A DNA stretch of 64,000 bases, taken from Minisyncoccota bacterium (GTDB taxonomy: Bacteria; Patescibacteriota; Minisyncoccia; Phycocordibacterales; DATDWN01). Every line of letters starts with the position of its first letter. Positions within the stretch are counted from its first letter, which is position 1. Positions 2,865 through 60,570 of the stretch are shown here, in pieces. The notes under the pieces are model-generated. The model was not told the origin of the DNA and did no database searches. It saw nothing but the letters and a program-made list of their open reading frames with translations. The position numbers and the translations under genes are program-made. The stretch spans positions 2,369 to 66,368 of the forward strand of contig JBAZZC010000006.1 in NCBI GenBank assembly GCA_041658985.1, in the 5' to 3' direction.

Positions 2865-3005
2865 ATTTATCCGCACACTAATTTTGCCATTGTTTTCAAT
2901 ATTCTGCAACAGAACCCTGTATAAATTCGACTTGAACTGTTTGCGTCAAAAAAATAGAAAGCCATGTTGAAAACCAGAATGATGGCAAATTTAGTGTTCG
3001 GATAT
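2865..3005. repeat. Paired-arm inverted-repeat element, family 1 copy G
   Basis: Left arm TTTATCCGCACACTAATTTTGCCATTGTTTT pairs with right arm AATGATGGCAAATTTAGTGTTCGGATA across a ~75-nt AT-rich spacer. It lies between the DedA stop and the small membrane ORF start, 7 nt from the ATG. Confidence 0.6.
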
Positions 3006-3021
3006 ACCAAATAAAGAAAAA

Positions 3022-3870: not shown

Positions 3871-5673
3871 ATGGAAATTAGAAACATAGCTATCATAGCC
3901 CACGTAGATCACGGCAAGACCACACTGACTGATGCTCTTATGCGTCAAACAGGAATGGTCACAGAAGAAAACGTGACAATGGATTCAAATGCACTTGAAC
4001 TAGAACGAGGTATTACTATTTATGCAAAAAACACATCCATTTATTATCCGTCCCAAAACTCCGGTAGAGAAGTAACAAAAATAAACATTGTAGATACTCC
4101 AGGGCACTCTGATTTTGGTTCAGAGGTGGAGCGAGTGCTTCGTTCTATTGATACAGTTTTACTTTTAGTTGATGCTCAGGAAGGACCAATGCCTCAAACA
4201 AGATTTGTTTTAAAAAAATCTCTAGAACTAGGATTAAAACCAATTGTTATAATAAACAAAATTGATAAGCCCGCATCCAGACCAGAAGAAGTCCACGAAC
4301 TTGTTCTTGAACTTTTTATGGAGCTCGGAGCAAATGATGAACAGCTAAACTTCACAACTGTCTACGCAATAGGGCGAGATGGAATAGCTAAGATGAAGTT
4401 AGAAGATGAGAGTAAAGATTTGACTCCCCTACTAGAGACAATTCTAGGGGAAGTTCCACCTGCCTCTGGTGACAAAAATCTTCCAGCCAGACTTCAGTCT
4501 TTCAATTTATCATATGACAACTTTCTCGGACGACTTGCTGTTTGTCGAGTATACGAAGGCACAATAAAAAACGGCGATGCTGTTTTTGTTAAACAACATG
4601 AGGGAGGAAAAATTATTCCAGGAAAATTGACAAAGCTTTTTAGTTTTGAGGGAATAAAAAGAAAAGAAATAGAAGAAGCTGTGGCTGGAGATATTGTTAT
4701 GATAGCCGGATTGCCTTCGGTCTATATTGGAGACACAATTTGTAAAGATGAAAACGCAGAGATGCTTCCCTCTATTAACATAGACGAACCAACAATCTCT
4801 CTCAATTTTTTGGTTAATGACTCCCCCTTTGCCGGAAGAGAAGGAAAATATGTGACAGGAAGACAAATCCGAGAAAGACTAGAAAAAGAACTAGAAATAA
4901 ATGTTGGTCTGAAAATTGACTGGAATGATAATTCTCCGTCAATTGGTTATACAGTTTACGGCCGTGGCGAATTACATATTGCCATCCTTCTTGAAAACAT
5001 GCGCCGAGAAGGTTATGAACTTCAAGTGTCACAACCAAAAGTTATCATAAAAGAAAAGGATGGAGTACAACTTGAACCATTTGAGGAAGTAACCATAGAT
5101 GTTCCCGAGGAATTGGCTAGTTCTGTTATATCAAAACTGACCGAAAGAAGAGGAATTCTCATGAATGTAAAGAAAACCCACGGGCACCAGAGAGTAATTT
5201 TTGAAATCCCAACCAGAGGACTTTTGGGTTATAGAGGACAATTTATTGTAGATACAAAGGGTCTGGGAATATTAGCCTCTAGGTTTGTAGAATTTCGTCC
5301 ATATGTCGGTGAGATAAAACGCACAAGTTATGGCTCTATGGTTTCAATGGAAAGTGGTAAGGTTTTGGCTTTTGCACTAGATAATCTCCAACAAAGAGGC
5401 ACTCTTTACGTTGAGCCTGGGGTTGAGGTCTATATTGGAATGGTGATAGGAAATGTTTCCAAGGGTGATGACTTGTCAGTCAACCCAACAAAAGGCAAAC
5501 AACTATCAAACATGCGGGCTTCCGGTTCAGATGATAAAGTCTATCTTGCCGCAACATATAAATTAGATATTGAAAAAGCTATGGAGACAATGAATGCCGA
5601 TGAGTTTATAGAAATTACTCCAAAATCAGTGCGTCTCAGAAAAAAAATAGTAAAGAAACCACTACCTAAGTAG
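3871..5673 (+). CDS. typA: GTP-binding translational GTPase TypA/BipA (start moved to MEIRNIAIIAHVDHGKTT)
   Basis: G1-G4 GTPase motifs (AHVDHGKTTL, DTPGH, NKID), EF-G-like domains and a BipA-type C-terminus. The ORF upstream of Met18 is read-through. Confidence 0.9.
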   Translation: MEIRNIAIIAHVDHGKTTLTDALMRQTGMVTEENVTMDSNALELERGITIYAKNTSIYYPSQNSGREVTKINIVDTPGHSDFGSEVERVLRSIDTVLLLVDAQEGPMPQTRFVLKKSLELGLKPIVIINKIDKPASRPEEVHELVLELFMELGANDEQLNFTTVYAIGRDGIAKMKLEDESKDLTPLLETILGEVPPASGDKNLPARLQSFNLSYDNFLGRLAVCRVYEGTIKNGDAVFVKQHEGGKIIPGKLTKLFSFEGIKRKEIEEAVAGDIVMIAGLPSVYIGDTICKDENAEMLPSINIDEPTISLNFLVNDSPFAGREGKYVTGRQIRERLEKELEINVGLKIDWNDNSPSIGYTVYGRGELHIAILLENMRREGYELQVSQPKVIIKEKDGVQLEPFEEVTIDVPEELASSVISKLTERRGILMNVKKTHGHQRVIFEIPTRGLLGYRGQFIVDTKGLGILASRFVEFRPYVGEIKRTSYGSMVSMESGKVLAFALDNLQQRGTLYVEPGVEVYIGMVIGNVSKGDDLSVNPTKGKQLSNMRASGSDDKVYLAATYKLDIEKAMETMNADEFIEITPKSVRLRKKIVKKPLPK

Positions 5674-5778
5674 TAAAATCTAGAATTTCTATTGATTTTT
5701 ATTAAGAAGATGACCTCACCACACGCCGGAGTGTTGTAGTGCGTGCGATGAGGCCATTTTCTCTACAAGAACTGGGGG

Positions 5779-6102
5779 CTAGTGCTGACGGACGGCATAT
5801 CGCCACCGGTGGTTTAATCTCACGGGTGCTTGCCGTGGCCGAGTAAAGACCAAAAGAAACTGCTCGGCCCGCCTTTTCTCATCTTTTTCCAGTCGTTCCA
5901 CAGCGAAAAGCACGGCGACAATCCTGCCAAGTGGCTCCTGAGGAAACTTGTACGCCTCCCCATGCTCCACATCGCGCACGACTTCTCTTTCCACGTGCGC
6001 AAGCTCGGCGAGTTCAACCCGACTGATTGAGGGATACCTCTCTCTCCCACACCGAACAATATGACCAAACGCCCTCACGACCCGAACCATCGCCTTTGAC
6101 AT
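5779..6102 (-). CDS. GC-rich cassette gene: Xre-family helix-turn-helix regulator
   Basis: SISRVELAELAHVEREVVRDVEHGEAYKFPQEPLGRIVAVL matches the Xre HTH signature. RBS GGGGG lies before the ATG at 6102. A TTGCAA/TGATAAT promoter-like pair lies upstream and a hairpin downstream. ~60% GC. Confidence 0.5.
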   Translation of the reverse strand: MSKAMVRVVRAFGHIVRCGRERYPSISRVELAELAHVEREVVRDVEHGEAYKFPQEPLGRIVAVLFAVERLEKDEKRRAEQFLLVFTRPRQAPVRLNHRWRYAVRQH

Positions 6103-6173
6103 GCGACCCCCACGATTAGATGCCACACTCCACTTACAATCAAATCATTATCACAAAAACTTTGCAAACACAT

Positions 6174-6951: not shown

Positions 6952-7099
6952 ATTAATCCGAACACTAACTTTAGCATCGTTGCCTAGTGTTTTCGTATAT
7001 TATTACCCAATTTGATATTTACTATAGAATAATACATAGTTAATACTAAATAACAAGCAACAGTAAAAACACAATGCTAAAGTTAGTGTGCGGATAAAT
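6952..7099. repeat. Paired-arm inverted-repeat element, family 1 copy A (between divergent truB and hisS)
   Basis: Arms TTAATCCGAACACTAACTTTAGCATCGTTG and CAATGCTAAAGTTAGTGTGCGGATAAAT. The right arm ends 1 nt before the hisS ATG. The spacer is AT-rich with outward promoter-like hexamers. Confidence 0.65.
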
Positions 7100-8386
7100 A
7101 TGAGCAATAAATCAAAATTAAGCACAGAGAGTTATAAGGGGGTTAGGGATTTTTATCCTGAGGATTTATTTATTCAAAATTATATTTTTAACACCTGGCG
7201 GAGGGTTGTGGAAAGTTTTGGCTACACAGAATACAGTGCTTCAGTACTGGAACCAGCTGAACTTTACAAAGCTAAAACTGGAGAAGAAATCGTTAACGAA
7301 CAAACTTACACCTTTACTGACCGTGGAAAACGAGAGGTAACTTTGCGTCCCGAAATGACTCCAACTGTTGCCCGAATGGTTGCCCAAAAACAACATGATT
7401 TGGTTTTTCCTCTGCGTTGGTATTCAATACCAAATCTTTTCCGATATGAGAAACCACAAAAGGGGCGCCTGCGAGAACACTGGCAATTAAATGTGGATAT
7501 TTTTGGAGTTGATTCTAATTATGCTGATATTGAAATAATCACTATCGCCCACCGAATAATGAAAGGCTTTGGAGCAAAGGATGATGACTTCGTAATAAAA
7601 ATCAATAATAGAAAAATAATAAATGCTTTGTATAAAAAATTTGATTTAGATGAAGAAAAATCCCACAAAGTCTCAAAAATTATAGACAAAAAAAATAAGA
7701 TTTCTGTTGCCGGCTTTGAAGAAGCCCTGACAGAAATTATGGGTGAAAGAGCCTTAGAGTTTATTACATCCATGGAATCAAACGAAAAACTAATTGAGGC
7801 CCTAGGAAGTAATAACAAATATACAAATGAACTGGCTTCCCTCATTGAACAACTTCAGGACTCTGGAGTAACAAACATTACTTTTGACCCAACACTTATG
7901 CGTGGCTTTGATTATTATACAGATATGGTTTTTGAGGTTTTTGATTTACACCCAGATAACAACAGGTCGGTTTTTGGGGGTGGCAGATACAATGACCTTT
8001 TGGACATCTTTGGGGCACCAAAAGTACCCGCAGTCGGATTTGGAGCTGGAGACGTAACGATAAGAGACTTTATGGAAACACACGGCCTAACACCCAAGTA
8101 TAAAAAAACTATTGACCTTTATATTTGCACTACCGAAACTAAATATGTAAAAGAGGCAAATAAACTGGCCAATAATTTACGACAAAACGGTTTGAATGTA
8201 GCTGTAGATTTTAGTGACAAAAAACTCGGTGACCAGGTCAAGACAGCCCACAAACAAAATATTCCTTATGTTATTTGTGTTGGTGAAGATGAGGTAAAAT
8301 CTGGTCTGTATAAAGTAAAAAATATGGATACTGGTGAGGAAGTAAAGGCAAGGATAGATGAGATAGTGAATGCTATTAAAAAATAG
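7100..8386 (+). CDS. hisS: Histidyl-tRNA synthetase
   Basis: Class II motifs (RPEMTPTVAR, FRYEKPQKGR, GGGRYD) and a C-terminal anticodon-binding domain. Confidence 0.9.
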   Translation: MSNKSKLSTESYKGVRDFYPEDLFIQNYIFNTWRRVVESFGYTEYSASVLEPAELYKAKTGEEIVNEQTYTFTDRGKREVTLRPEMTPTVARMVAQKQHDLVFPLRWYSIPNLFRYEKPQKGRLREHWQLNVDIFGVDSNYADIEIITIAHRIMKGFGAKDDDFVIKINNRKIINALYKKFDLDEEKSHKVSKIIDKKNKISVAGFEEALTEIMGERALEFITSMESNEKLIEALGSNNKYTNELASLIEQLQDSGVTNITFDPTLMRGFDYYTDMVFEVFDLHPDNNRSVFGGGRYNDLLDIFGAPKVPAVGFGAGDVTIRDFMETHGLTPKYKKTIDLYICTTETKYVKEANKLANNLRQNGLNVAVDFSDKKLGDQVKTAHKQNIPYVICVGEDEVKSGLYKVKNMDTGEEVKARIDEIVNAIKK

Positions 8387-8409
8387 TCTCAAATTTTAAA
8401 TAATATTTT

Positions 8410-8576
8410 AGACACGTATAAATCACTGGTGTGATTTTACTATGCTCGTCAATCAAGAAAACAATCTTCCTCAGTACTGGCCCTCTCGCAAACTCCTCGT
8501 TGAGTACAACTTCGTCAAACAGTGCTTCGGGCTGGCGTACTTCGTCGTTGTTTTCTAATTGACTGTGCAATGTCTA
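8410..8576 (-). repeat. Copy 1 of a duplicated ~160-nt GC-moderate structured element (candidate ncRNA or MITE)
   Basis: ~90% identical to 47493-47646 on the opposite strand, with one 19-vs-10-nt indel. Terminal complementarity GTCAATTAGAAAACAA / TTGTTTTCTTGATTGAC. Confidence 0.5.
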
Positions 8577-8628
8577 AAATATCACTTAAAATTTTGCGAA
8601 CGGTTAGGTTCACTGTTATACTGACAAT

Positions 8629-9210: not shown

Positions 9211-9235
9211 GTAAAAATCTTTTTTTCATCACAAT

Positions 9236-9370
9236 CTTTTCAGAGCAACCCTAAGAAATTCCAGCGAATTTCTTAAGGCCAGTCCTCACCCTCTATCTGT
9301 CAAGAGCCCTCGCTTTGCTCGGGTCTATGACAGAACCATGCTAGAGGGTTGCGGGGTCTCTGAAAAAATT
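9236..9370 (+). ncRNA. Candidate structured RNA element (multi-stem, strand uncertain)
   Basis: Closing helix CAGAGCAACCCT...AGGGTTGC(GGGGT)CTCTG. Internal perfect hairpin AAGAAATTC-CAGC-GAATTTCTT and nested stem CTGTCA...TGACAG. No family recognised. Confidence 0.25.
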
Positions 9371-9776
9371 ATGATTCAACAAGATTTTAATTTTTATTTA
9401 TCCCTAAGGTTGTGCCTTTAAAATTATTGTTTTTATAAACGAAAAAGAGGCGGCGGGGACTCTGCTGGCAGTCCCCACCCCTCTCGTGTTCCTTGGCCAG
9501 AGTGCCTCGCTCCCTCGAGAGCTACTGGCCGTCAATCCACACATCTGACCGTGTCGTGTCGCTACTGGCCAGTCGAGGTCGCCGTCGGCGCCATCTTGGT
9601 GGTTGTCGCCGCCGCCGTCGTCCTGGTCTTCGCCGTGCGTCGCTTCGTCGCCGTGGTCATTTCCTGCACCTCCTGTGTCCCGGAAAGAGTTGACGTGGAT
9701 GACGCGACTCCGCGATGCCATCCTCTATTAGCATAACAAAACAGTATTTACTGTGTCAATAGTTATCCACAGCACC

Positions 9777-14288: not shown

Positions 14289-14486
14289 CTATTCAGCGAC
14301 ACAAACTGGAACTGGAGGTAAGACAACCGCCTTCCAGACCCCTTCTTGGTGATTGAACTCCATATCCTCAAGAAGTTTCCAGCACTCATCACAGTAGCGA
14401 TACCCCTGAAAAATGACACGAACTTTCTTTCCGTGGCAGAATGGGCAACGCCTCTCGCCATCCTTGATATACGAAGCTTCAATCAT
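14289..14486 (-). CDS. Small C4 zinc-ribbon protein co-transcribed upstream of the helicase-nuclease
   Basis: CPFCHG...YCDEC. RBS GGAGGT lies 4 nt before the ATG at 14486. Palindrome ATGACCATGGGGTCAT sits just upstream. 18 nt separate it from the helicase start. Confidence 0.5.
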   Translation of the reverse strand: MIEASYIKDGERRCPFCHGKKVRVIFQGYRYCDECWKLLEDMEFNHQEGVWKAVVLPPVPVCVAE

Positions 14487-14562
14487 GTGACCTCCAAAAA
14501 ACAAATATGACCCCATGGTCATTTCGCATTTATAGTAACATTTTATATTTTTTTACACAAAC

Positions 14563-14620
14563 AAAAAAGCCTCGTGCCGGTGGGGATGCCCACATTGGGC
14601 ACCCCACCTACACGAGACCG
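14563..14620 (-). terminator. Rho-independent terminator of GC-island gene 1
   Basis: GGTGGGGATGCCCA-CAT-TGGGCACCCCACC stem followed by a U-run on the minus strand. Confidence 0.6.
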
Positions 14621-14622
14621 CG

Positions 14623-15240
14623 TCAGAAGTTCAGCCTTAGACCGGCCGAACCCCCAACTTTCTTCCCTTCCTTGACCGGCGCGACCCAGAGGTCGAACGG
14701 ACCGAACGACCTCTCAATGTACGGCCCGGTTCCGACGAACCGAGTGGAATTGGCCCCGAGCTTCCAGGAGCCGAGACGGACGGTGCCGGTGTACCGATAC
14801 CAGTATCCGCTCCCGCCGTTCTCATGTGAACTCTCAAGAGTCACTCGACCCTTGCTAATCCACAAGTTGCCTGCGAAGCGAAGTGGCTTCCTGTTGGTCT
14901 CCGCACCAACCAAGAAAGCCACCTGGATGGAGTCAACGGGGGCAAACGTCAGACCGACGAGCCCTTCGGCCCATTTCTCGGTTGACCACTGTCCCCCATC
15001 CTCTGTCCACTGGTTCGTGCCCCACCCCCACACGGCCCACCCGAACTTGCCCTTGATGGGGCCTTCCAGATAGACCGTAACCGAGGGGCTCGTATGCCCC
15101 CCAACGTACTCGTTGTACGATTCGACGAATCGAGTTGGCTCCTGCGCCGACGCCGGCACAAGTGAGGCCACCATCATGACGAGCAAGATGATGACCGTGA
15201 CACCGAAAGTCCGCGGACGAGTATCCAGTGTGATGTCCAT
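14623..15240 (-). CDS. GC-rich secreted protein, possibly an outer-membrane beta-barrel (signal peptide, C-terminal ...LRLNF)
   Basis: 205 aa with an SP ending ASAQ. It has alternating hydrophobic beta-strand-like segments and a C-terminal Phe. ~62% GC with its own promoter and terminator. Confidence 0.5.
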   Translation of the reverse strand: MDITLDTRPRTFGVTVIILLVMMVASLVPASAQEPTRFVESYNEYVGGHTSPSVTVYLEGPIKGKFGWAVWGWGTNQWTEDGGQWSTEKWAEGLVGLTFAPVDSIQVAFLVGAETNRKPLRFAGNLWISKGRVTLESSHENGGSGYWYRYTGTVRLGSWKLGANSTRFVGTGPYIERSFGPFDLWVAPVKEGKKVGGSAGLRLNF

Positions 15241-15254
15241 TGAAACCTCTTTGG

Positions 15255-15330
15255 AATCGGCTGGGGCGACATGCCCCTCTGCTCACAACAATAGCACCAA
15301 AATATTAAATTGTCAATATAAAATTTTGAT
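15255..15330 (-). promoter_or_regulatory. Promoter/5'UTR module of island gene 1 (TTGACA-17-TATTGT, then a GGGGC..GCCCC hairpin)
   Basis: 40 nt are nearly identical to 16085-16125 upstream of the paralogue. Confidence 0.5.
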
Positions 15331-15333
15331 ACG

Positions 15334-15384
15334 AAAAAAGCCCCGTGCCTGCGGAACCCGAGATGGGTTCCGCCGCACGAGACC
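15334..15384 (-). terminator. Rho-independent terminator of GC-island gene 2
   Basis: GCGGAACCC-GAGAT-GGGTTCCGC followed by a U-run. The outer flanks are shared with the terminator at 14563-14620. Confidence 0.6.
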
Positions 15385-15389
15385 GCGCA

Positions 15390-16064
15390 CTACTTGGTCG
15401 ACGCCCAGTGGACACCGACGTAGTACATGTACTGCTTCGCGTTCCCGTTCCGAGAGACGCTCCCGGTAACCGAGAAGTTGTTGTTGACCCTCTGGGTGTA
15501 CGACACCCCAGGGATCCGGTTCAGCGGGTCGTCGAGGAAGTTGAGAAGCGTGTAAGTCAAGCCGACAGGCCCGATATTGGCGTTGAAGCTCGCCAAGTAC
15601 CCAATCCACAGCTTCTCGGGGTTAACCCCGGAGCGCCAGTTCCTCGGCTCGACGCCGATGAACAGACACGGCCACTGAAAAGTCCCTACCGAGACCTCCT
15701 GCCCGGCAATCTTGCCGACCGGCAGACTCATATTCAGGTAGGGACCGACCCACGGAGAGCCCTGGAAGTGCCCAGCCGAACCGGCGACGGTTCCTGTGAG
15801 CTTTCCGAGCTTGAACTCGGGCCCCCAGACAACCCACGCCTGCTCCTGCTGAAATGCCACCTCGAGAAGATGGCCCCGGCCGTTCTTGAAGTCGACGATC
15901 CCGGTTATGCCAGAGCTGATCGGATCCTCACCGGCGGACACCGTGGCACCGGACAGCTTGTAGCCGCCGGGGTCCGCAGGCGGAGTCGCCGTCTGTGCCT
16001 GCGCCGCGAACGGCGTGAGACAGAGGACAAACAGGATGGATGCGACGAGTGTCTGTCTCTTCAC
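15390..16064 (-). CDS. Paralogous GC-rich secreted protein (GTG start, signal peptide ...AAQAQ)
   Basis: Start moved to the GTG at 16064, behind the duplicated promoter module. N-terminal signal peptide; overall similar architecture to 14623-15240. Confidence 0.45.
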   Translation of the reverse strand: MKRQTLVASILFVLCLTPFAAQAQTATPPADPGGYKLSGATVSAGEDPISSGITGIVDFKNGRGHLLEVAFQQEQAWVVWGPEFKLGKLTGTVAGSAGHFQGSPWVGPYLNMSLPVGKIAGQEVSVGTFQWPCLFIGVEPRNWRSGVNPEKLWIGYLASFNANIGPVGLTYTLLNFLDDPLNRIPGVSYTQRVNNNFSVTGSVSRNGNAKQYMYYVGVHWASTK

Positions 16065-16084
16065 GTTGGTCCTTTCGGTATCTT

Positions 16085-16140
16085 GGAGGCGACATGCCCC
16101 TCTGCTCACAACAATAGCACCAAACATCCATTTTGTCAAT
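16085..16140 (-). promoter_or_regulatory. Duplicated promoter/5'UTR module of island gene 2
   Basis: TTGACA...TATTGT plus the same GC hairpin as upstream of gene 1. Confidence 0.45.
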
Positions 16141-16202
16141 ATATCTCCTCCCCCCACCTTCACACAATAAAACCTTTAATCTCGTTGAACTAAAATCTTT
16201 TT

Positions 16203-16310
16203 GGAACATCCGCAGGCTTCCAGCATAGTTCTGTCAAGGCATCCCTTCTTGACAGATGGAAGCCGAGGACATGAACAAACCCAAGCGCTGGCTTGGGTTT
16301 GTGTTTTCAA
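16203..16310 (+). ncRNA. Candidate small RNA: nested 5' hairpin plus an intrinsic terminator, with no upstream plus-strand gene
   Basis: GCTTCCA..CTGTCAAG..CTTGACAG..TGGAAGC followed by CAAACCCAAGC-GCTG-GCTTGGGTTTG and TGTTTT. Confidence 0.2.
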
Positions 16311-16339
16311 AAAGGTTTTGGTGAAAAAGAGATTAAAAA

Positions 16340-17659
16340 TTAATAATAACTTCTCAGTCGATTTATCTTCTCATGCTGTCTTATCTTCTCATGTGCCTTG
16401 GCTTCAATCTGTCTGATACGCTCACGAGTAACCCCAAACTCCTTCCCCACTTCTTCTAGGGTATGCGTCACACCATCAACTAACCCGTGTCGAAGCTCTA
16501 AAATCTTTCTCTCTTTCTCTGGTAAGTCATTTAGAATTTCCTTGACTTGGTCAGAAATAATTCGTCTAGCCGACTCCTGCTCTGGAGACAATATTTTTTC
16601 ATCAGCCAAAAAGTCACCGAGTTTGCTTTTACTATCATCTTCATTTTCTCCTATCGGAGCTTCAAGCGAAAGAGTGCTTTGGTCAATTTTTTCAATAGTA
16701 TAAATTTTATCAACAGGAAGATTCATTTCAATAGCAATCTCTTCTGGTAGTGGGTCACGCCCCAAGTCCTGACTAAGACGCCTGACTACCTGTTTATACT
16801 TGGCAATGGTTTCCACCATGTGCACTGGAACACGAATGGTTCGTGACTGGTCCGCTAAAGCCCGAGTGATGGCCTGACGAATCCACCAGGTAGCATAGGT
16901 AGAAAACTTGTAACCCTTAGTCCAATCAAACTTACTAACGGCCTTAAAAAGGCCCAGGTTTCCCTCTTGTATGAGGTCAAGAAGCGTAAGGTCAGGACTT
17001 CGGTTAGCATATTTCTTGGCAATGGAAACCACCAAGCGTAAGTTAGCACGTGCTAAAAGATTTATAGCCTCAATATCTCCTTTTTCTATACGTTTTGCCA
17101 GTTCCTTTTCTTGACCACCGGAGATAAGTTGATATTGGCCAATTTCTTTAAGATACATCTGGATTGAATCGTAGGAAGATTCCCCACCACGACCATATGA
17201 ATATTTTTTGTTTAAGAGGTCATCACTTAAAGGCGACTCCAATAGTCCGCCCCCCTCCAAAATATCAATACCACTTACTGATAATTTTTCATAGAGTTCA
17301 TCGAGAAAAATAATATCATCTTCAATTGTTGGAAATTCTTTCAGAATCTCATCATAAGTTACATAACCTCTTTCTTTACCTTTGGCTAAAAGCCTAATTA
17401 ACCCCTCGCTTTGTTTATCAGCTTTTTTCATCACCACCTCTTTTTTCTTGGGGAGTGTCTTTGAAGCTCTCATAGCTAAAGAAGTTCTGCTCTTTTTCTT
17501 TTTGCGAATTTTTGGTACAACAAATTTTTTAGATTTTTGTAACTTACGTTTTATGTGTTTTTTGGATGCCTTTACCTTAGCTTTTACCAATTTTTTAGTA
17601 TGCTGTCGTGGTTTATGCCCAGTCTCTTTCTTGTTTTTTGTTTTTTTCTTTTTTTTCAT
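16340..17659 (-). CDS. rpoD: RNA polymerase sigma-70 (RpoD) with an ~80-aa Lys-rich N-terminal tail
   Basis: Regions 1.2, 2 ([12 protein letters not shown]), 3 and 4 ([20 protein letters not shown]). The N-terminus is a [11 protein letters not shown]... low-complexity tail. Confidence 0.9.
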
Positions 17660-26461: not shown

Positions 26462-26604
26462 ATAAATCCGAACACCAACTTTGACATCGTTACTTCTGTC
26501 CCAAGTTTTGCTAACCAGACTTATCTATGTGTCCATCAATACTTAATGGGTCATATCATTAAAGTAACAATGGGACAATGTCAAAGTTGGTGTGCGGATA
26601 AAAA
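26462..26604. repeat. Paired-arm inverted-repeat element, family 1 copy B (rpoB upstream/leader region)
   Basis: Arms AATCCGAACACCAACTTTGACATCGTTACTTCTGTCCCA and TGGGACAATGTCAAAGTTGGTGTGCGGATAAAA. The arm-specific variants CCAACTTTGAC co-vary in both arms. Confidence 0.65.
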
Positions 26605-26811: not shown

Positions 26812-26922
26812 TTTATCCAGGCACCAAGTAGACAAGAAAAACACACCCTTACTAGCCACTTCTGTACATCGATGAACACAGATTAATTAATACTAATGAG
26901 TTATACTTGTCTACTTGGTGCC
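26812..26922. repeat. Family-2 inverted-repeat element, module 1 (arms TTTATCCAGGCACCAAGTAGACAAG)
   Basis: 25-bp perfect inverted arms across a ~60-nt spacer that contains ACTAGCCACTTCTGTACATCGATGAACA. Confidence 0.6.
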
Positions 26923-26949
26923 TGGATGAATTCACAGTGGGTTTGACAC

Positions 26950-27070
26950 CTACATCCAGGCACTAATTGAATGAGTGTAATTCCTTGATATTAATCTATT
27001 TATGTTCATCGATGTACAGAAGTGGCTAGTAGAGATATTTTCTTCTCATTCAATTAGTGCCTGGATAAAT
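26950..27070. repeat. Family-2 inverted-repeat element, module 2 (arms ATCCAGGCACTAATTGAATGAG), an inverted and diverged copy of module 1
   Basis: Its spacer carries the reverse complement of the same 30-nt core. The arms are perfect within this copy but differ from module 1 after ATCCAGGCAC. Confidence 0.6.
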
Positions 27071-27912: not shown

Positions 27913-28055
27913 TTTATCCGCACACTAACTCTGGTATCGTTGCCTCGTCTCCAGATTTAGTTGTGGTTATTTTTATTTGCGTTTATAAAAGTAATAAATT
28001 TAATATTAATTATGGCAACACTGGAGACAATACCAGAGTTAGTGTTCGGATTAAT
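27913..28055. repeat. Paired-arm inverted-repeat element, family 1 copy C (between the small ORF and lexA)
   Basis: Arms TTTATCCGCACACTAACTCTGGTATCGTTGCCTCGTCTCCAG and CTGGAGACAATACCAGAGTTAGTGTTCGGATTAAT (~40 bp). The left arm ends 5 nt before the lexA ATG. Confidence 0.65.
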
Positions 28056-29394: not shown

Positions 29395-29484
29395 TGCGGA
29401 GGATACAGGGATTGAACCTGTGTAACGGTATTAAGCGTGTTGTCGGTGTCGTAGACCGATGCATTACCACTCTGCCAATCCTCC
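29395..29484 (-). tRNA. tRNA gene: anticodon loop CUACGAC gives ACG (Arg) tentatively, with an atypically long ~21-nt variable region
   Basis: Reverse complement has GGAGGAT acceptor stem, AGTGGTAA D-loop, TCGGT/ACCGA anticodon stem, ACAGG-TTCAATC-CCTGT T-arm and ATCCTCC 3' acceptor. No encoded CCA. Confidence 0.5.
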
Positions 29485-32789: not shown

Positions 32790-33029
32790 GTTTTTATAAG
32801 CTAATTCTAATAACATTATTCTACTCCCCCTAAAAAAGATTACAAGGCCCAAATCCCTAAGGAGTCTCCTTGGGGAATGGTCATCGTTCTAGTAGACAGC
32901 AAAATTTTACAATAAAACCCCGCCGTAGAAAATCTACGCGGGGTCCAGAAACACGGGAGGGCTAAGGTCAAAGGGTCCAAGAAGGACACAGTGACCTTAG
33001 CCCTAAGTGCTAACTTGCCTGCCCCGTAG

Positions 33030-33389
33030 TCAGCTTTGCTGTACTACTGGGGCGAGAACGGCAGACATGTTGATGACGTTGAAGTCGCCACCCAGCCAGC
33101 GCACGTCCCAACGCCATTTGCCGTCGAGGTTGCCCCAGTAGAGGTACAGGACGCAACGAAGACCACCTGGGTTCCGAAGAACCGTGCCATCAAAGGTGAT
33201 GAACTGGATGTTCCCGTTCACCCGTTCCTTCCATGTCTCGGGAATGAGGTGCTGATTGCACCAGAAGAACAGAAACACGACCGCGTCGAGGCGGATGTGC
33301 CTCAAGGCCACCAGTCGTTTCAGCCTCTTTTCGCCTTTAACCGACAACTCGCCAGTCTTGAGCGTCGACACCAGGCGAACTTGGTCCAT
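33030..33389 (-). CDS. GC-rich cassette gene B (119 aa, hypothetical)
   Basis: ~58% GC and co-directional with 33477-33719. Confidence 0.35.
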   Translation of the reverse strand: MDQVRLVSTLKTGELSVKGEKRLKRLVALRHIRLDAVVFLFFWCNQHLIPETWKERVNGNIQFITFDGTVLRNPGGLRCVLYLYWGNLDGKWRWDVRWLGGDFNVINMSAVLAPVVQQS

Positions 33390-33476
33390 ATTGATCTCGG
33401 TCAGCCCGAGTGAGCGAACGTCCTGTTCCTCACTGCCCGTGAGACCGTTGCCATTGGCTGGACCTTTCCAGATCGT

Positions 33477-33719
33477 CTAGCCCGTGCCGATGAAGGCGGA
33501 GTCGAACGATTTGGGTCGGTCGATAATGACCCTGAACGCACTGACGATAAGGCGAGCACCGTTCTTGAGGAAGGCGGTGAATCTCTTACCGAATTCCTCG
33601 GGTGTGAGTTCGATCACTTCATTCTGAAGTGACCCTCCGTCGAGTTCATCCCAGTTGACCTGGGTTCCAACCCGAGCAGAGATTTGCAGAGCTTGACCGC
33701 GTGATACGGCTTGACTCAT
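33477..33719 (-). CDS. GC-rich cassette gene A (80 aa, hypothetical)
   Basis: ATG at 33719. A 16-bp perfect inverted repeat lies just upstream. Confidence 0.35.
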   Translation of the reverse strand: MSQAVSRGQALQISARVGTQVNWDELDGGSLQNEVIELTPEEFGKRFTAFLKNGARLIVSAFRVIIDRPKSFDSAFIGTG

Positions 33720-33756
33720 GACATCTCTCCCTTTCTTGCTAGAGGACTCCCGATGT

Positions 33757-34917: not shown

Positions 34918-34973
34918 TTTAACACAAAATCAGAAATCCAATTTACTACGATATATCGTAGTAAATTGAAATT

Positions 34974-36733: not shown

Positions 36734-36946
36734 ATGACTGAGTACAGGACAGTAGCTGGCCCGACTATTTCAACAATACAGATAGGGGGGGTCAGCAACG
36801 CGACAGTGACAGACATGGAGAATCCGTGTCTCAACAAAATGGTCAAAGAAGGGTGGGAGATTCACGCCGTCATCACCCATCACTCCATCAACCCCGACTG
36901 CACCGCAATCGCATTCATTATGGAGAGAAAGGTGGAGGAGGAATAA
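36734..36946 (+). CDS. GC-rich cassette gene: DUF4177-like 70-aa protein
   Basis: RBS GGAAGGAG. MTEYRTV...LNKMVKEGWEIHAVI resembles DUF4177. Terminator CCGCCGAGAAACCGCCAAACGGTCTCCGGCGG plus TTTTCT at 36950-36990. Confidence 0.45.
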   Translation: MTEYRTVAGPTISTIQIGGVSNATVTDMENPCLNKMVKEGWEIHAVITHHSINPDCTAIAFIMERKVEEE

Positions 36947-37171
36947 CACCGCCGAGAAACCGCCAAACGGTCTCCGGCGGTTTTCTCAATTAAAAATCTC
37001 GTTGAGTCATGTCTTGAGAAAGGCCTTTCGCAGGAGTTTAGAAAATAAAGGAAGTATTCTGACTATTATTTTCTTGAACGACGAGAAGTTCGCTAGCTCA
37101 CCAGAGCTAGATAGATTGCCTTTCGAGAGATATGACGAGAAAGAGATTTTGAAAGTATTTATAGTGAAAAA

Positions 37172-38804: not shown

Positions 38805-38964
38805 AATGAATTCTATCGATTAATTGTAAAAGAATACAGAAATATTATATCAACAAAAATTGACTTTCGTCAAACCCGGTAGTGAATTTTGGCATAGGCG
38901 CAGCCATGCTCTGAAAGAGCAATGCCAAAATCTACTACCAGGTCAAACTATCTATTTTAGATGC

Positions 38965-46868: not shown

Positions 46869-47005
46869 TTCGTCTTCTAGTATATCAAATTTTTTTCATA
46901 ACAGAAAAAACAATAACAAAGGAAAAAAGTAATCTACTAAAATAATTTGACAAAACCGTCCTTTAATAGGATCATATTGGCTGGACCCTTTCAAGGAGGC
47001 CCGTT

Positions 47006-47326
47006 TTGAAAGCTAGAGGCTTCAACCTTTTCGCACTCGGCGCTCTGTTCGGAGTTCTCCTAACGGCAGGTGTTGGCCGATACAAGGCCAACGACCAGCC
47101 GACGGAGGTCGTCACGAACCACGACTGGACGTGGGTCAAGGTGGAAAACCTCGTGGGCGTACCCACGAAGGGACACGACTACAGTTTCGGTGACATGTGT
47201 AGCATCATGCCTGGCGGGGTACTGGAGGTCCAAAGAAAGGTGGACCCCTGGGTAGTGCTGGAGTACACAAGTCCCCGAGAACCAACCGAGCCCGAGTGTG
47301 GGAGAGCGGGACCATTTTCAGCATGA
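47006..47326 (+). CDS. GC-rich cassette gene: small secreted protein (TTG start, signal peptide)
   Basis: RBS AGGAGG 7 nt before the TTG. TTGACA promoter upstream. Two hairpins follow, the second with T6, at 47372-47460. Confidence 0.45.
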   Translation: MKARGFNLFALGALFGVLLTAGVGRYKANDQPTEVVTNHDWTWVKVENLVGVPTKGHDYSFGDMCSIMPGGVLEVQRKVDPWVVLEYTSPREPTEPECGRAGPFSA

Positions 47327-47492
47327 AGCTGGCTGAGTTCGACAGACGATGGCCTGCGACACGATAAGTACCTCATGGGATCCTGTAGACTGACAATGCG
47401 TCACTCTACAGGATCCCAGCCCCCGAATTGGAAAACTCCGTTCGGTGGGTTTTTTCGTTTAAAAATCACAATATTGAGTTATAACTTTTTCA

Positions 47493-47646
47493 AGACATTG
47501 CACAGTCAATTAGAAAACAACGACGAAGTACGCCAGCCCGAAGCACTGTTTGAGCGTAGCGAGTTTGCGAAAGGGCCAGTACTGAGGAAGATTGTTTTCT
47601 TGATTGACGAGCATAGTAAAATCGCACCAGCGATTTATACGTGTCT
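47493..47646 (+). repeat. Copy 2 of the duplicated ~160-nt structured element
   Basis: See 8410-8576. Immediately precedes the rnc stop. Confidence 0.5.
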
Positions 47647-47671
47647 TGAAAAAGTTAGTAACGAAATAATT

Positions 47672-48367
47672 TTATTGCCAACCACGAGTTACCAGAGCTG
47701 AGCGGGCTGCAGCCTGTTCCGCCTCCTGTTTGGAAACACCATCACCTGTGGCTACTAAATCTTTGCCAACATATACACCAACCGTGAATCTTTTTTCGTG
47801 GTCAGGTCCGGCTTCTTTTATTGTTTTATATGCAGGAGTAATACCATCAAACTCCTGAGCTTTTTCTTGAAACAAGCTTTTAGCGTCAACGTGACTCCCT
47901 GTTGAAATTATATTTTCTATCTTTGGTGTAAAATTTTTCTCAATGAAGTCTTTTGCGGAATCATATCCTTGGTCAATGTAAATCGCACCAATAAGAGCTT
48001 CTAAAGCATTGGCTAGAATATATTGTCTGGCGCGCCCAACATCTTTGCTCTCACCTTTTGAGAGCAGTAAGTAATCACCCATTCCAAGAACCGTAGCAAT
48101 CTGGGAACAAGTATCTGCATTTACTAAGGCCGACCTGTAAGCGGTTAGTTCCCCCTCGGCCCTGTCTTCATATTTTTTAAATAAATAGTCGGTGATAACC
48201 AATTCCAAAACAGCATCGCCAAGAAATTCCAATCTTTCATTGTGTGCCAGACCAGATTGTTTGTTTTCATTTATATATGAACGATGAACAAAAGCCTGCG
48301 TCAAAAGAGCCTCATCTTTAAATGACAGCCCCGCCTCTTTTTGAAATTTTGCAAAATCTGTTGTCAT
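47672..48367 (-). CDS. rnc: Ribonuclease III
   Basis: Signature ERLEFLGDAVLELVITDYLF and a C-terminal dsRBD. Confidence 0.9.
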   Translation of the reverse strand: MTTDFAKFQKEAGLSFKDEALLTQAFVHRSYINENKQSGLAHNERLEFLGDAVLELVITDYLFKKYEDRAEGELTAYRSALVNADTCSQIATVLGMGDYLLLSKGESKDVGRARQYILANALEALIGAIYIDQGYDSAKDFIEKNFTPKIENIISTGSHVDAKSLFQEKAQEFDGITPAYKTIKEAGPDHEKRFTVGVYVGKDLVATGDGVSKQEAEQAAARSALVTRGWQ

Positions 48368-48374
48368 GGTATTT

Positions 48375-48480
48375 ATACGAATATGCGAACAATGCGAATC
48401 TACGAATGGCTACGAATTAAATGCTGGTTTGATTGTGTTATTCGTTGACATTCGCATCATTCGTTACATTTGTATATTCG
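48375..48480. repeat. Converging arrays of hexamer ACGAAT (x5) and its complement ATTCGT/ATTCGC (x4) in the nusB-rnc intergenic region
   Basis: TATACGAATATGCGAACAATGCGAATCTACGAATGGCTACGAAT ... ATTCGTTGACATTCGCATCATTCGTTACATTTGTATATTCGTATC. Confidence 0.5.
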
Positions 48481-48483
48481 TAT

Positions 48484-50456: not shown

Positions 50457-50631
50457 TTCGTTATTTTAACATACCCTATGTTTACCTAAATAATTTTTTA
50501 TGATATTTCAATTTGGTACAATATATTGTATCAAATTGAAATATTGGAGAGATTGTTTTTTTATAAAAACAAAAAGAGCCGTCGGCGCACGAAACGCAAA
50601 CGGACTCTTTGGAAAAAACGTACTGACACAC

Positions 50632-50898
50632 TTACTTGCGCTTGGCAAGTCGTTGAAGCGCATTATCCGCTTCACGGACTTGCGTCGTCAGGCGAAATAC
50701 CTCAAGACGCAAATCCTCACACTCACGAACCAGACGAACAGCGTTTGCCAAAAGGCTAATCTTGGCGTTGGCATCTGGGTCTGGATTGCCAGAATCAACA
50801 CCATCCTTGAGAAACCTGATTTGGACAAGCATCAGGGCTTTGAAAGCATCAAGGGGAATCTCGAGCTTCCTTCCTGTTACCAACTCTTGCGTACTCAT
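50632..50898 (-). CDS. GC-rich cassette gene b (89 aa), N-terminal paralogue of 50910-51248
   Basis: RBS GGAGGA. Terminator AAGAGCCGT...ACGGACTCTT plus U-run at 50565-50625. Confidence 0.4.
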   Translation of the reverse strand: MSTQELVTGRKLEIPLDAFKALMLVQIRFLKDGVDSGNPDPDANAKISLLANAVRLVRECEDLRLEVFRLTTQVREADNALQRLAKRK

Positions 50899-50909
50899 AC
50901 TTCCTCCAA

Positions 50910-51248
50910 TCAAGAACCTGTTGTTGTCTTGGCCTGCAGTTCAACGAGGCCACAGGTGCATGGCTTGGCCTCGTGAACAACGACACCACCATGACCGATG
51001 ACGGCCGGAACCATGGTGCACCCGTCTGTGTGCTGGATGTACGGCTTCAGCGCCTCGACCTTCGCACGAAGGTCAGCGAGTTCGCGAACCGCAAGGACAG
51101 CAGGCTCGAGGACTTCTTCCTGCTCTCTGGTGTAACCATCACCACCCCCGGTCCTGAGGTAATGAATTTTGATCAGGATTTTCTGCAACACCCGATCAAG
51201 AGAGTCGACGAGCTTTCTTCCTTTGACCAAATCACTCAGGTCGTCCAT
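50910..51248 (-). CDS. GC-rich cassette gene a (113 aa) with a CxC motif near the C-terminus
   Basis: RBS GGGAGG. N-terminus ...LVKGRKLVDSLD... parallels ...LVTGRKLEIPLD... of gene b. Its stop lies 12 nt upstream of gene b's start codon. Confidence 0.4.
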   Translation of the reverse strand: MDDLSDLVKGRKLVDSLDRVLQKILIKIHYLRTGGGDGYTREQEEVLEPAVLAVRELADLRAKVEALKPYIQHTDGCTMVPAVIGHGGVVVHEAKPCTCGLVELQAKTTTGS

Positions 51249-51389
51249 TGACTTTGCCTCCCACCACAAAATACCACTACTTTTCCCAAATATCAAGCCC
51301 CTCTCCACCATAATGATGACATGCTATAATGTGAATCGAGCCTGTATTCACTTTATAACTTTCTACTTTATAACTTTATAACTCCTCAC

Positions 51390-54641: not shown

Positions 54642-55028
54642 TTACGCCATGGCTGAAATGGAAGAGTTGTATGGTTGTGCTAATTTAAATGTTTTGAATT
54701 TATTCCTTATTTTTATCTCCTCAAGGTAGCTTAGAAATTGTTTTGGCAGTGGTGACGGCCCGACCCAAATACTCTTTTGTATCATGACATATCCAAATTT
54801 AATTAAATGTCGCCTAAACCAATCTCTTTCTTTTTTTAGCTCGTGTGGAATATCATACATGACGATAAGATTTTTTGGTAAACTTTTATTGAAAGGAGAC
54901 TGGAAAGAAATATGATATGGGTTTCTTTTTTTTATTACTGATTTGTTGTTTTGTTTTTTAGTAGATACTGGTAAACCAAACATATTTACTTTCACACCTT
55001 TATAATTAAAAATTTTTTGCTTACCCAT
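54642..55028 (-). CDS. Solo Cas2/VapD-superfamily protein with a ~45-aa Lys-rich N-terminal extension
   Basis: LIVMYDIPHELKKERDWFRRHLIKFGYVMIQKSIWVG parallels the Cas2 pattern (ILMFDMP..ERK.YRKFRKFL..GF.M.Q.SVY). No cas1 or CRISPR array nearby. Confidence 0.45.
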   Translation of the reverse strand: MGKQKIFNYKGVKVNMFGLPVSTKKQNNKSVIKKRNPYHISFQSPFNKSLPKNLIVMYDIPHELKKERDWFRRHLIKFGYVMIQKSIWVGPSPLPKQFLSYLEEIKIRNKFKTFKLAQPYNSSISAMA

Positions 55029-55050
55029 ATATTCTATTATACACTACTAT

Positions 55051-55078
55051 CCCCATATACGCCATGGCGTATATGGGG
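55051..55078. promoter_or_regulatory. 28-bp perfect palindrome CCCCATATACGCCATGGCGTATATGGGG overlapping the -35 region of the Cas2-like gene
   Basis: It lies directly upstream of TGTATAAT (extended -10), which ends 8 nt before the ATG of 54642-55028, suggesting a leaderless mRNA. Confidence 0.5.
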
Positions 55079-55159
55079 ATATACAGTATTGTTAGTGTTT
55101 TTATATAGTTGTTTGTATAACAAAGGGCTGGTCGAGTTGACCAGCCCCAAGAACACACA

Positions 55160-55714
55160 TCAGTCTCTGTCGGCCCTGTGCCGATCTGATTCGGTACGCT
55201 TCACAGCATGTGTGGCACGTTCTGCTCGCACCTGCGCCACAATCTTGCGTTTCCGCTCGAGGAGATCGGTCGGGGAGCCAGGATCACCACACAGTTGTTG
55301 TAGATAGAATTCGCTCAGGCGCCGAGCACCTGCCAGACTGGCTTTGTCACGAGCAGGCTCAGAGTGAAGCCGGATGAGGTGGAAAGCCTCGTTCTGATCC
55401 ACTCGAGCAATATGCTCAATGACGGCCACCCAAACAGCTGACAGAAGAGAATTTCTGTAGATCTCCTTGAAAATCTCCAGGTCCCCGATCTGTTGGAGTT
55501 GACGCAGAGCATCGTAGGCTGCATCCTGGTCTACTCCAATTGCAATCTCGTACAGCCGGCGCCCCAACCGGAATGCATCCGCTACACTCCTTGCAAAAAC
55601 CTTGCGATACTTACGAAAGAACTCTGTGTCTTTCGTAGTCACTTCATGTTCTGAGAGAATCTGAAGTGTTGAGTTGATCTCCGTTCCCGTCATGGACGAA
55701 AGTAAGCTGGCCAT
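55160..55714 (-). CDS. GC-rich cassette gene (184 aa, hypothetical)
   Basis: TTGACA-16-TATAAAT promoter and RBS GGAG. Terminator GGGCTGGTC-AACTC-GACCAGCCC plus U-run at 55110-55145. Confidence 0.45.
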   Translation of the reverse strand: MASLLSSMTGTEINSTLQILSEHEVTTKDTEFFRKYRKVFARSVADAFRLGRRLYEIAIGVDQDAAYDALRQLQQIGDLEIFKEIYRNSLLSAVWVAVIEHIARVDQNEAFHLIRLHSEPARDKASLAGARRLSEFYLQQLCGDPGSPTDLLERKRKIVAQVRAERATHAVKRTESDRHRADRD

Positions 55715-60424: not shown

Positions 60425-60570
60425 TTTACCCGCTACACTAACTTTACCATTGTTTTTGTATTCTAATTCAAAATGTTGTTGAATAGTGTTTTTTTCATGA
60501 GACTACTGAAAATAATAGTAGTATTCTGTTAGAAAAACAGAATGATGGTAAAGTTAGTGTGCGGGTTTAC
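60425..60570. repeat. Paired-arm inverted-repeat element, family 1 copy D (between divergent gyrB and pheS)
   Basis: Arms TTTACCCGCTACACTAACTTTACCATTG and AATGATGGTAAAGTTAGTGTGCGGGTTTAC. The arm-specific variants CCCGC and TTTACCAT co-vary. Confidence 0.6.

Follow-up and report, generated by a model that had tools for sequence, protein, structure and literature searches.

A previously undescribed superfamily of structured, strand-asymmetric interspersed repeats at gene 3' ends in Patescibacteria

A stretch of 64,000 nucleotides from a Minisyncoccota bacterium (contig JBAZZC010000006.1 of GenBank assembly GCA_041658985.1, forward-strand positions 2,369 to 66,368; hereafter the window) contains, on opposite strands, two copies of an intergenic element of about 160 nt, and thereby raises the question of what kind of entity this element is. 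An initial annotation, made from the letters alone, had proposed a structured non-coding RNA or a miniature inverted-repeat transposable element (MITE). Our analysis shows that both copies are interspersed repeats which do not code for protein, form hairpins and belong to a superfamily not described before, found in Patescibacteria (the candidate phyla radiation, CPR), within which they represent a new strand-asymmetric and strongly structured repeat family that is located at gene 3' ends and evolves in a modular fashion, with gain and loss of the element. The original proposal holds in broad terms: structure is borne out by covariation, and the element is an interspersed repeat with presence/absence polymorphism, although, there being no target-site duplication, not a classical MITE. 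The better-folding strand, the boundaries of the unit, the size of the indel and the family context are new relative to that annotation.

The duplication itself is real, since it was recovered both by a repeat finder run over the whole 64-kb window and by pairwise alignment of the two copies. Positions 8410-8495 pair with 47561-47646 (86 nt, 97% complementary) and 8515-8575 with 47493-47553 (61 nt, 100%), which places the conserved core of copy 1 (w1) at 8410..8575, one nucleotide short of the end first given for it (8576), and that of copy 2 (w2) at 47493..47646, exactly as annotated. Between the matching blocks one segment has been swapped, 19 nt in copy 1 (8496-8514) for 7 nt in copy 2 (47554-47560); a single replacement with a length difference divisible by 3 had been recognised correctly (the difference is 12 nt), while its size had been put at 19 versus 10 nt. 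Outside this segment the alignment shows 3 substitutions only, i.e. an identity of 97-100% in place of the ~90% previously estimated, and two of the three make up one compensatory pair in a side hairpin (P3), where A at 8425 and T at 8432 in copy 1 correspond to G and C in copy 2, turning an A-U into a G-C pair. Both copies are intergenic, as had been stated, and start ~24-25 nt beyond the stop codon of hisS (7088-8386, +) and of rnc (47672-48367, -), two genes confirmed by Pfam, each copy being co-oriented on the DNA with that gene.

The true unit exceeds this core by about 20-30 nt on either side. For copy 1, the full hairpin spans 8387..8603 (-) and comprises the core, a copy-specific outer stem (8391-8409 paired with 8576-8595) and degenerate outer motifs (TGAGA at 8387-8391, GCGAACGG at 8596-8603); its two flanks match each other as inverted repeats at 17/19 positions and bear no relation to those of copy 2, and the distal 29 nt of the hairpin are missing from the core-less allele L026 described below (L001 to L032 label the loci compared with the window). 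For copy 2, flank inspection and folding delimit a hairpin at 47462..47673 (+) that reads AAAAUCAC ... UUGAG, outer stem, CGA, AAUAAUUUU; its outer stem pairs 47478-47492 with 47647-47662, and its closing helix, at the AAUAAUUUU end, overlaps the rnc stop codon by 2 nt.

Both strands of both copies fold beyond chance (z = -5.6 to -8.8 against dinucleotide shuffles), with a minimum free energy (MFE) for copy 1 of -73.5 kcal/mol on the minus strand versus -56.1 on the plus strand, and for copy 2 of -71.1 kcal/mol on the plus strand versus -62.7 on the minus strand. Compensatory changes between the copies, which the initial annotation had suggested looking for, are found at 8425/8432, and among 16 canonical copies, on which all fold and covariation statistics were computed, RNAalifold returns a structure of 54 pairs, 29 of them with double-sided changes. 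On that structure 97.7% of the cells are paired; none of 500 shuffles reaches the observed values, and control pairs in which the partner was slid are paired at 38-44%. The predicted fold is hence conserved by compensatory change, and each unit forms one long branched hairpin. Followed inward from its ends, this hairpin consists of a short closing helix between an A-tract and a U-tract (AAAAUCUC / GAGAUUUU), an internal loop with GA opposite GA, a stem of 10-20 bp whose sequence is unlike in each copy yet near-perfectly paired, a conserved U-run:A-run followed by AGACAU / GUGUCU, and, innermost, a three-way junction bearing a helix, P2, and the side hairpin P3. The short inverted terminal repeat AGACA/TGTCT and the long-range helix GTCAATTAGAAAACAA / TTGTTTTCTTGATTGAC, both noted at first sight, are present, the latter being invariant in 16 relatives.

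In the large variant, to which both copies belong, P2 is made of the invariant helix GUCAAUUAGAAAACAA / UUGUUUUCUUGAUUGAC, a variable and optional central domain and an apical hairpin. Its two arms lie in copy 1 at 8448..8464 and 8548..8563 (-), with 13 of 18 pairs that never vary, and the swapped segment at 8496..8514 (-) is the long version of the apical hairpin module, of which copy 2 has the short version at 47554-47560. P3, at 8416..8440 (-) in copy 1 (GUAAAAUCAC-ACCA-GUGAUUUAUAC), has a loop of ACCA or AACA and changes on both sides in 8 of its 10 pairs, with 100% of the cells paired. The central domain is deleted in L025 and carries insertions elsewhere, a hairpin in L020 and, in L006 and L022, a 76-nt block of three hairpins that itself shows compensatory changes. 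A hammerhead-like CUGANGA word in the central domain was considered and rejected, for it is not conserved among the aligned copies.

The two strands are not equivalent. Of 26 copies, 23 fold with a lower MFE on the structured strand, which forms 122 G-U pairs versus 76 on the other strand; furthermore, the variable stem ends outwards in a 2x2 loop with GA opposite GA in ~17 of the 26 copies (tallied by eye, copy 2 included), and such loops occur twice in a diverged member of the window (member C, below) and in the small element of L032. These loops read GA on the same strand of both arms and would be UC/UC mismatches on the complement; they are candidate tandem sheared G-A motifs, of which a true k-turn would also need a 3-nt bulge. 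Because of the GA/GA loops, the lower MFE and the surplus of G-U pairs, one strand appears to have been selected, be it as RNA or as single-stranded DNA. The 3' end of the element abuts the stop codon of a neighbouring gene, and it is the strand antisense to this gene that is predicted to fold better.

Strand specificity and GA/GA loops, together with very strong covariation and invariant single-stranded and junction nucleotides, are what would be expected from a stand-alone structured RNA gene acting in trans, with one to few copies per genome, in which the junction, the P3 loop and the tandem G-A (k-turn- or loop-E-like) would bind a protein and the closing stem would act as a processing stalk, e.g. 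for RNase III. The loss of the central domain in L025 and the insertions in L006, L022 and L020 resemble those of functional RNAs, and the core is more conserved (95-96%) than the host protein DnaE (86% amino-acid identity). The distribution of the element, set out further below, nevertheless makes this an unlikely account.

A different possibility is that the element encodes a small protein, e.g. a type I toxin, either through a frame of 64/108 amino acids on the structured strand (frame A, LHSQLENNDE...) or through an open reading frame (ORF) of 34-38 amino acids that starts with ATG on the other strand (MLVNQENNLPQYWP...). Both frames are open in both window copies, in agreement with what had been reported for one of them, the indel is a multiple of 3, and such ORFs were called as genes in 8 records from metagenomes or genomes. 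Of the 14 copies obtained without the peptide search, which constitute an unbiased sample, 8 nonetheless have a frameshift or an interruption in frame A; the ATG ORF, for its part, is shortened to 9-16 amino acids in at least six copies (L007, L008, L010, L011, L024 and L025). All three substitutions between the window copies are non-synonymous or upstream of the ORF, the ORFs have neither a Shine-Dalgarno sequence nor a Pfam match, and what look like conserved residues just reflect both arms of the invariant helix. Since both frames are broken in relatives, with neither of them conserved, the element is not coding; the doubts voiced from the start about its coding capacity were well placed, and comparison among copies effectively refutes the small-protein reading, to which we accord next to no probability.

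The same open frame, used as a peptide query, gave access to the wider family, as it retrieved 8 metagenome or genome records mis-annotated as 'hypothetical protein'. A subsequent exact-pattern scan with the invariant 22-24-mer TTGTTTTCTTGATYGACGAGCA(TA) yielded 9 hits in 7 metagenome-assembled genomes (MAGs) of Patescibacteria, with three copies in one MAG, and 9 metagenome contigs, and 7 further loci were reached via miscalled peptides. The genome from which the window comes is itself a Candidatus Paceibacterota MAG, its Rnc being 100% identical. The search for additional copies, one of the checks originally suggested, has thus brought the total to ~21 distinct copies and revealed three further divergent members inside the window; the 24-mer TTGTTTTCTTGATYGACGAGCATA of helix P2 retrieved all relatives. 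The pattern scan of viral contigs gave 0 hits, and BLAST of the copies against phage and plasmid collections found nothing similar. The Rfam search that had also been suggested associated neither copy with a family: with Rfam 15 at the gathering threshold only a tRNA passes in the whole window, and scans of both copies by E-value returned chance-level snoRNA and miRNA hits only (E > 0.3). A survey of the literature on CPR repeats or structured RNAs found nothing relevant.

A covariance model built on the large variant (R1) scores copy 1 at 214 bits and copy 2 at 210 bits, as expected by construction because both are among its training sequences. More informative are the diverged members. Member C, at 36992..37150 (+), is a shorter relative with the full scaffold AAAAUCUC-GUUGAG ... 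CGAGAAA-GAGAUUUU, detected by R1 at 37010-37138 with 41 bits (E 1.9e-8); both outer motifs have 0 mismatches, and it folds at -60.9 kcal/mol versus -44.4 on the other strand. Member D, at 16175..16337 (+), is a small variant whose 3' end abuts the stop of a sigma-70 gene (16340-17659, -), scored by R1 at 29.9 bits (E 9e-6, 16192-16325) and folding at -76.9 kcal/mol. Member E, at 9213..9388 (-), another small variant, recognised by its paired outer motifs, lies between a GC-rich ORF of 105 amino acids (9404-9721, -) and an exonuclease stop (9210, +) and folds at -79.6 (z -9.6) versus -60.7 on the other strand. R1 also detects short members at other loci (L015 5372-5460, L011 6141-6227, L032 1021-1109). 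The shorter members share the scaffold AAAAUCUC - GUUGAG - variable stem ... variable stem' - CGAGAAA - GAGAUUUU, and the outer AAAATCTC/GAGATTTT motif is conserved in C, D, E and the small elements of L011 and L032, being degenerate in copies 1 and 2. The possibility that this motif is a DNA uptake sequence was rejected, for AAAATCTC occurs 16 times in the window versus 6.7 expected, an enrichment of only 2.4-fold.

We also observed zero-loop perfect palindromes, intergenic and with arms of 17-21 bp, at 34937-34970, 50503-50544 and 55048-55081, and another in L026 (~1610-1625). The three in the window attain weak, hairpin-level R1 scores of 17-19 bits, which establish no firm tie to the family; two of them lie downstream of GC-rich ORFs, at the place where one would look for a hairpin element, and the one at 50503 carries a TGGAGAGATT word resembling the outer motif of the family. 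They may be core-less scaffolds or operators.

Comparison of orthologous sites then shows how the element comes and goes. On a groundwater contig (L026) whose HisS is 96% identical, the core is lacking: 32 nt lie between the hisS stop and a conserved exo-promoter block, versus 222 nt in the window, and the whole hisS-exo gap measures 48 nt versus 242 nt. L026 retains the mini-palindrome ATCTTTTT|AAAAAGAT and the family 3' scaffold, its stem and outer motif AGATATGACGARAAAGAGATTT matching member C, at a different locus of the window, in 21/22 positions; relatives at 80% identity have gaps of 23-37 nt. The absence of the core in L026 fits gain/loss or mobility. The element present downstream of dnaE in L001, L010 and L024 is absent from the dnaE of the window, and exo and bacA, 8 nt apart in L028-L031, are separated in the window by a GC-rich ORF and member E. 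The rnc-smc site is uninformative as an empty site, because in L032, a 90%-identical relative, it holds another gene (DUF5715).

Sequence identities further point to a modular mode of evolution. Cores are 0.98 identical between copies 1 and 2 and 0.93 between L010 and L011, that is, within genomes, and similarly close between different loci of different genomes (0.95-0.96 for copies 1 and 2 to L001, 0.986 for L009 to L013), with outer stems and flanks at background identity (0.38-0.39). At the ctpB site, the orthologues L007 and L023 have homologous outer stems with compensatory double changes, AGTCTG/CAGACT versus AGTGAG/CTCACT. The apical hairpin is distributed as a mosaic, long in L001, L002, L003, L009 and L013 and short in L005, L008, L015 and L024, and the 76-nt block of L006 and L022 corresponds to the core of another member type, found between truB and bipA in L028 (2079-2190). 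As judged from these alignments, the element has been gained or lost between close relatives, and modules, namely the apical hairpin and the 76-nt block, have been shuffled between members. All of this sits poorly with the trans-acting RNA gene considered above, given that the element is sporadic to the point of missing its core in a 96%-identical relative, occupies different loci in related genomes, belongs to a heterogeneous superfamily with interchangeable cores, has no conserved promoter and follows neighbouring stop codons instead of a conserved gene neighbourhood.

Polymorphism of this kind at the hisS, dnaE and exo-bacA sites, and five members in 64 kb, would also be compatible with a classical cut-and-paste MITE, for which the AAAATCTC...GAGATTTT ends would be terminal inverted repeats recognised by a DDE transposase encoded elsewhere and the fold a by-product of the palindrome; small size, non-coding and multi-copy nature, intergenic location, inverted ends and a variable interior are indeed shared traits. 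No direct target-site duplication, of TA or otherwise, was seen at the copies, a check already foreseen in the initial annotation, nor does the comparison of filled with core-less (L026) alleles reveal one; the flanks are inverted complements, not direct repeats, and the element is therefore not a classical MITE. In addition, recognition as double-stranded DNA leaves the strand-asymmetric GA/GA loops and G-U pairs unexplained, compensatory changes affect internal helices such as P3, which are not ends, copies 1 and 2 have degenerate ends yet near-identical cores, and no parent insertion sequence with these ends was present among the loci recovered by collection scans, all of which renders this origin very unlikely. 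The idea that the outer stem is an inverted target duplication or a pre-existing palindrome was likewise weakened, because AGATATGACGARAAAGAGATTT recurs (21/22) at two loci (L026 and member C), conserved motifs lie outside the stem and the ctpB orthologues show ordinary compensatory drift.

What the members do share is their position. In all five window members and at most loci, the structured strand ends, at its 3' side, 0-25 nt from a stop codon that belongs to a gene on the opposite strand, the convergent genes being hisS, rnc, sigma-70, the exonuclease, dnaE (three times), ctpB (twice), PPIase and others. Four or five large-variant copies (L002, L014, L020, L022) were observed within type IV pilus clusters (pilM/pilN, a pilB-like ATPase, pilC), where they are co-oriented with the pilus genes and not convergent. 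The two sides of the element also differ in composition: mean GC content is 44.6% 5' of the element and 37.9% 3' of it, the loci as a whole having 39%, and 20 of 26 copies are richer in GC on the 5' side (Wilcoxon p = 0.0013). A GC-rich gene of foreign appearance lies 5' of about half of all copies, typically in the order of a small GC-rich ORF with its own promoter and GC-rich terminator, 30-50 nt, the element and the native stop codon, as seen at copy 2, C, E, L001, L007, L010, L014, L022, L024 and L032; these ORFs are mutually unrelated and have no Pfam match. The one directly 5' of copy 2 (47006..47455, +), outside the hairpin element, encodes 106 amino acids at 58% GC, with AAGGAGG and a TTG start, followed by a hairpin and intrinsic terminator, and has no match in Pfam. 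A tmRNA or other RNA gene in this GC-rich stretch was rejected, since ARAGORN and Rfam were negative and the stretch reads as that ORF with its Shine-Dalgarno sequence and terminator.

Islets of 50-64% GC stand out in this 37-39% GC genome at 5600-6126, 9404-9740, 14400-16163, 32800-33720, 36734-36946, 46970-47450, 50665-51311 and 55160-55714. The small ORFs in them have no known function, encode signal peptides in several cases, and come with sigma-70-like promoters and GC-rich terminators of their own; the islets look horizontally acquired. Within one of them, a 56-nt direct repeat (15265-15320 / 16088-16143, 88% identical) containing TTGACA-17-TATTGT lies upstream of two genes of 60% GC (14623-15240 and 15390-16163, minus strand) for signal-peptide proteins, between which no similarity was detected.

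The recurrent order of GC-rich ORF with its own promoter and terminator, element and native stop raises the possibility that the element is a recombination site acting as folded single-stranded DNA, in the manner of integron attC or CTX-phage attP, and mediating the insertion of small GC-rich cassettes beside native stop codons. At exo-bacA the ORF and the element were gained together, unrelated ORFs fill the same 5' slot at thrS-dnaE and L9-ctpB, and a strand-specific fold with non-Watson-Crick pairs would be stable in DNA too. This proposal we regard as quite unlikely, given that there is no integrase or HUH enzyme near any copy, that the GTT on the 5' side pairs with CGAGAAA and not with the AAC box that is a hallmark of attC, and that the other boundary of the cassette lacks a second half-site. 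Moreover, copy 1, L023 and ~half of all copies have no GC-rich neighbour, the L007 ORF is inserted at least 25 nt outside the hairpin, and orientation is set by the neighbouring genes and not by one DNA strand (2 minus and 3 plus in the window). A broader version, modelled by analogy, would be a dispersed gene-capture system in CPR, in which a strand-specific folded site past stop codons, with interchangeable cores inserted into a common scaffold and a sequence unrelated to attC, would repeatedly acquire GC-rich foreign genes on its 5' side, possibly host-derived and each equipped with a promoter and terminator; such a system would be attC-like in function, without arrays and with another enzyme, and its probability is in our judgement low.

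The explanation that we favour, while granting it an even chance and no better, is that of a selfish, non-autonomous structured repeat of the ERIC/Correia kind which, as an RNA hairpin at gene ends, would block or process antisense transcripts. The family would have spread as selfish, non-autonomous DNA via recombination or a trans-acting enzyme; when transcribed, a member is predicted to form a very stable RNA hairpin with flanking U-tracts, by which transcripts heading antisense into the convergent native gene would be stopped or processed, such transcripts typically being read-through from strongly promoted, GC-rich acquired genes 5' of the element. It is by this stopping or processing that the hairpin might be tolerated, or even selected, at gene ends. 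Such transcript blocking fits the fixed orientation of the element and the presence, 5' of it, of foreign genes with strong promoters. On either strand the closing helix is followed by U-tracts of 4-6; a consensus scan does not call the element.

Several observations weigh against this selfish, transcript-blocking hairpin. There is no transposase or autonomous parent element at the ~25 loci, no consistent sigma-70-like or otherwise conserved promoter ahead of the element and, for copy 1, no co-directional gene directly upstream on the structured strand. The helix beside the U-tract is short and AT-rich in many copies, unlike a canonical intrinsic terminator, and the large copies already have a proper terminator upstream. 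The invariant stretches of at least 24 nt and the conserved junction exceed what a terminator or insulator needs, an excess which suggests recognition by a protein or enzyme, and the element might also act as single-stranded DNA. Finally, by record title the carriers include Zambryskibacteria and Saccharibacteria, which are different NCBI candidate phyla, the Saccharibacteria label being unconfirmed.

The window contains other features worth recording. A second repeat family, with six copies (2866-3006, 6953-7098, 26463-26602, 27913-28054, 60426-60567 and 62999-63141), has conserved 28-nt inverted arms, TTTATCCGCACACTAAC.../...GTTAGTGTGCGGATAAA, which resemble the DnaA-box-like word TTATCCRCA and enclose an AT-rich variable spacer of 85-90 nt; most copies lie directly upstream of gene starts, that of hisS included. 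A conserved hairpin GGTAGTAGATTTTGGCATTGCTCTTTCAGAGC...GCCAAAATTCACTACCGGG is found at 38835-38905 (-) and in L032 (~1545-1610), where it adjoins rnhB; the Rnc proteins of both genomes are 90% identical, and no Rfam family matches this hairpin. A large inverted repeat at 26812-27069, in which shorter arms TTTATCCAGGCACCAAGTAGACAAG are nested, has arms of 117 nt with 77% complementarity and a spacing of 24 nt, and the nusB-rnc intergenic region (48368-48483) harbours a long hairpin of repeated CGAAT/ATTCG words. The tRNA-Arg(ACG) at 29396-29484 (-) is, with 89 nt, unusually long for class I and may contain an intron or insertion. Between dnaE and the palindrome at 55048, a gene at 54642-55028 (-) encodes a protein of 128 amino acids with a Cas2-like / PaaX central domain; there is no CRISPR array within the window.

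The significance of the hairpin family lies in its prominence in a tiny, streamlined CPR genome, where five copies occupy ~1.4% of the window, and in a clade for which almost no non-coding biology is known. Covariation, strand asymmetry and invariance make it a strong candidate for a new class of structured RNA or a new kind of bacterial repeat. Its placement at stop codons offers a handle on how these symbionts terminate or insulate transcription, and its enrichment beside GC-rich genes bears on foreign gene uptake. In practical terms, 8 records in which the element passes for a 'hypothetical protein' illustrate how repeatedly it is mis-annotated.

It remains to place the family among known systems. 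A bidirectional intrinsic terminator would likewise present an A-tract, a hairpin and a U-tract between convergent genes right after their stop codons, but the element is 130-230 nt long, branched, conserved in sequence across genomes and weak in the helix at the U-tract, and canonical GC-rich terminators coexist beside it. With integron attC it shares a strand-specific folded site 3' of a small cassette ORF, variable sequence with conserved structure, an R-box-like base, an unpaired spacer and a variable terminal structure; it differs in having no RYYYAAC...GTTRRRY pair, arrays or intI, in that the structured strand carries the neighbouring ORF in the sense direction, and in the many copies without an ORF. 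Membership in attC was rejected, as GTTGAG occurs on the 5' side only and faces CGAGAAA, the copies are solitary and dispersed and no integrase is present in the loci. REP and REPIN sequences (associated with RAYT) are, similarly, extragenic hairpin repeats at gene 3' ends, with REPs being recognised as single strands and stabilising upstream mRNA; however, a REP measures 20-40 nt with a 5' GTAG and a REPIN consists of two inverted REPs whose tetranucleotide is complemented on the other arm, whereas the units described here are 130-230 nt long, have a branched core and carry YGAG/GA on the same strand of both arms, and no RAYT or Y1 transposase was found among annotated neighbours, so that they were not assigned to that group.

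The closest parallels come from intergenic repeats of other bacteria. The bcr1 repeats of the Bacillus cereus group are interspersed, ~150 nt long and reported to have a conserved RNA secondary structure with compensatory changes; they differ in their TTTAT target duplication, architecture and host clade, and no sequence relation is apparent (no Rfam hit). ERIC (or IRU) and YPAL are enterobacterial, non-coding intergenic imperfect palindromes of ~127-170 bp whose copy number varies between strains and which, co-transcribed in neighbouring mRNAs, form long RNA hairpins with an orientation-dependent effect. The Patescibacteria family resembles them as a non-coding intergenic repeat that forms a long hairpin; ERIC, however, has conserved terminal inverted repeats and inserts at TA with duplication, which the present family does not show, and only the latter, found in Patescibacteria alone, combines a copy-specific stem between conserved parts with a three-way junction and GA/GA loops. 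The Correia elements (CREE/NEMIS) of Neisseria are short hairpin repeats located at the ends of genes, in a genome prone to recombination and naturally transformable, and are candidate RNase III or terminator elements linked to the cassette hot spots known as 'minimal mobile elements'. They differ from the family in their 26-bp terminal inverted repeats, TA duplication and hundreds of copies, as compared with five copies in 64 kb lacking any such terminal-repeat or duplication signature, whereas strong compensatory evolution of internal helices sets the Patescibacteria family apart; the location at gene ends is common to both, and the variability of cassettes between conserved genes is analogous.

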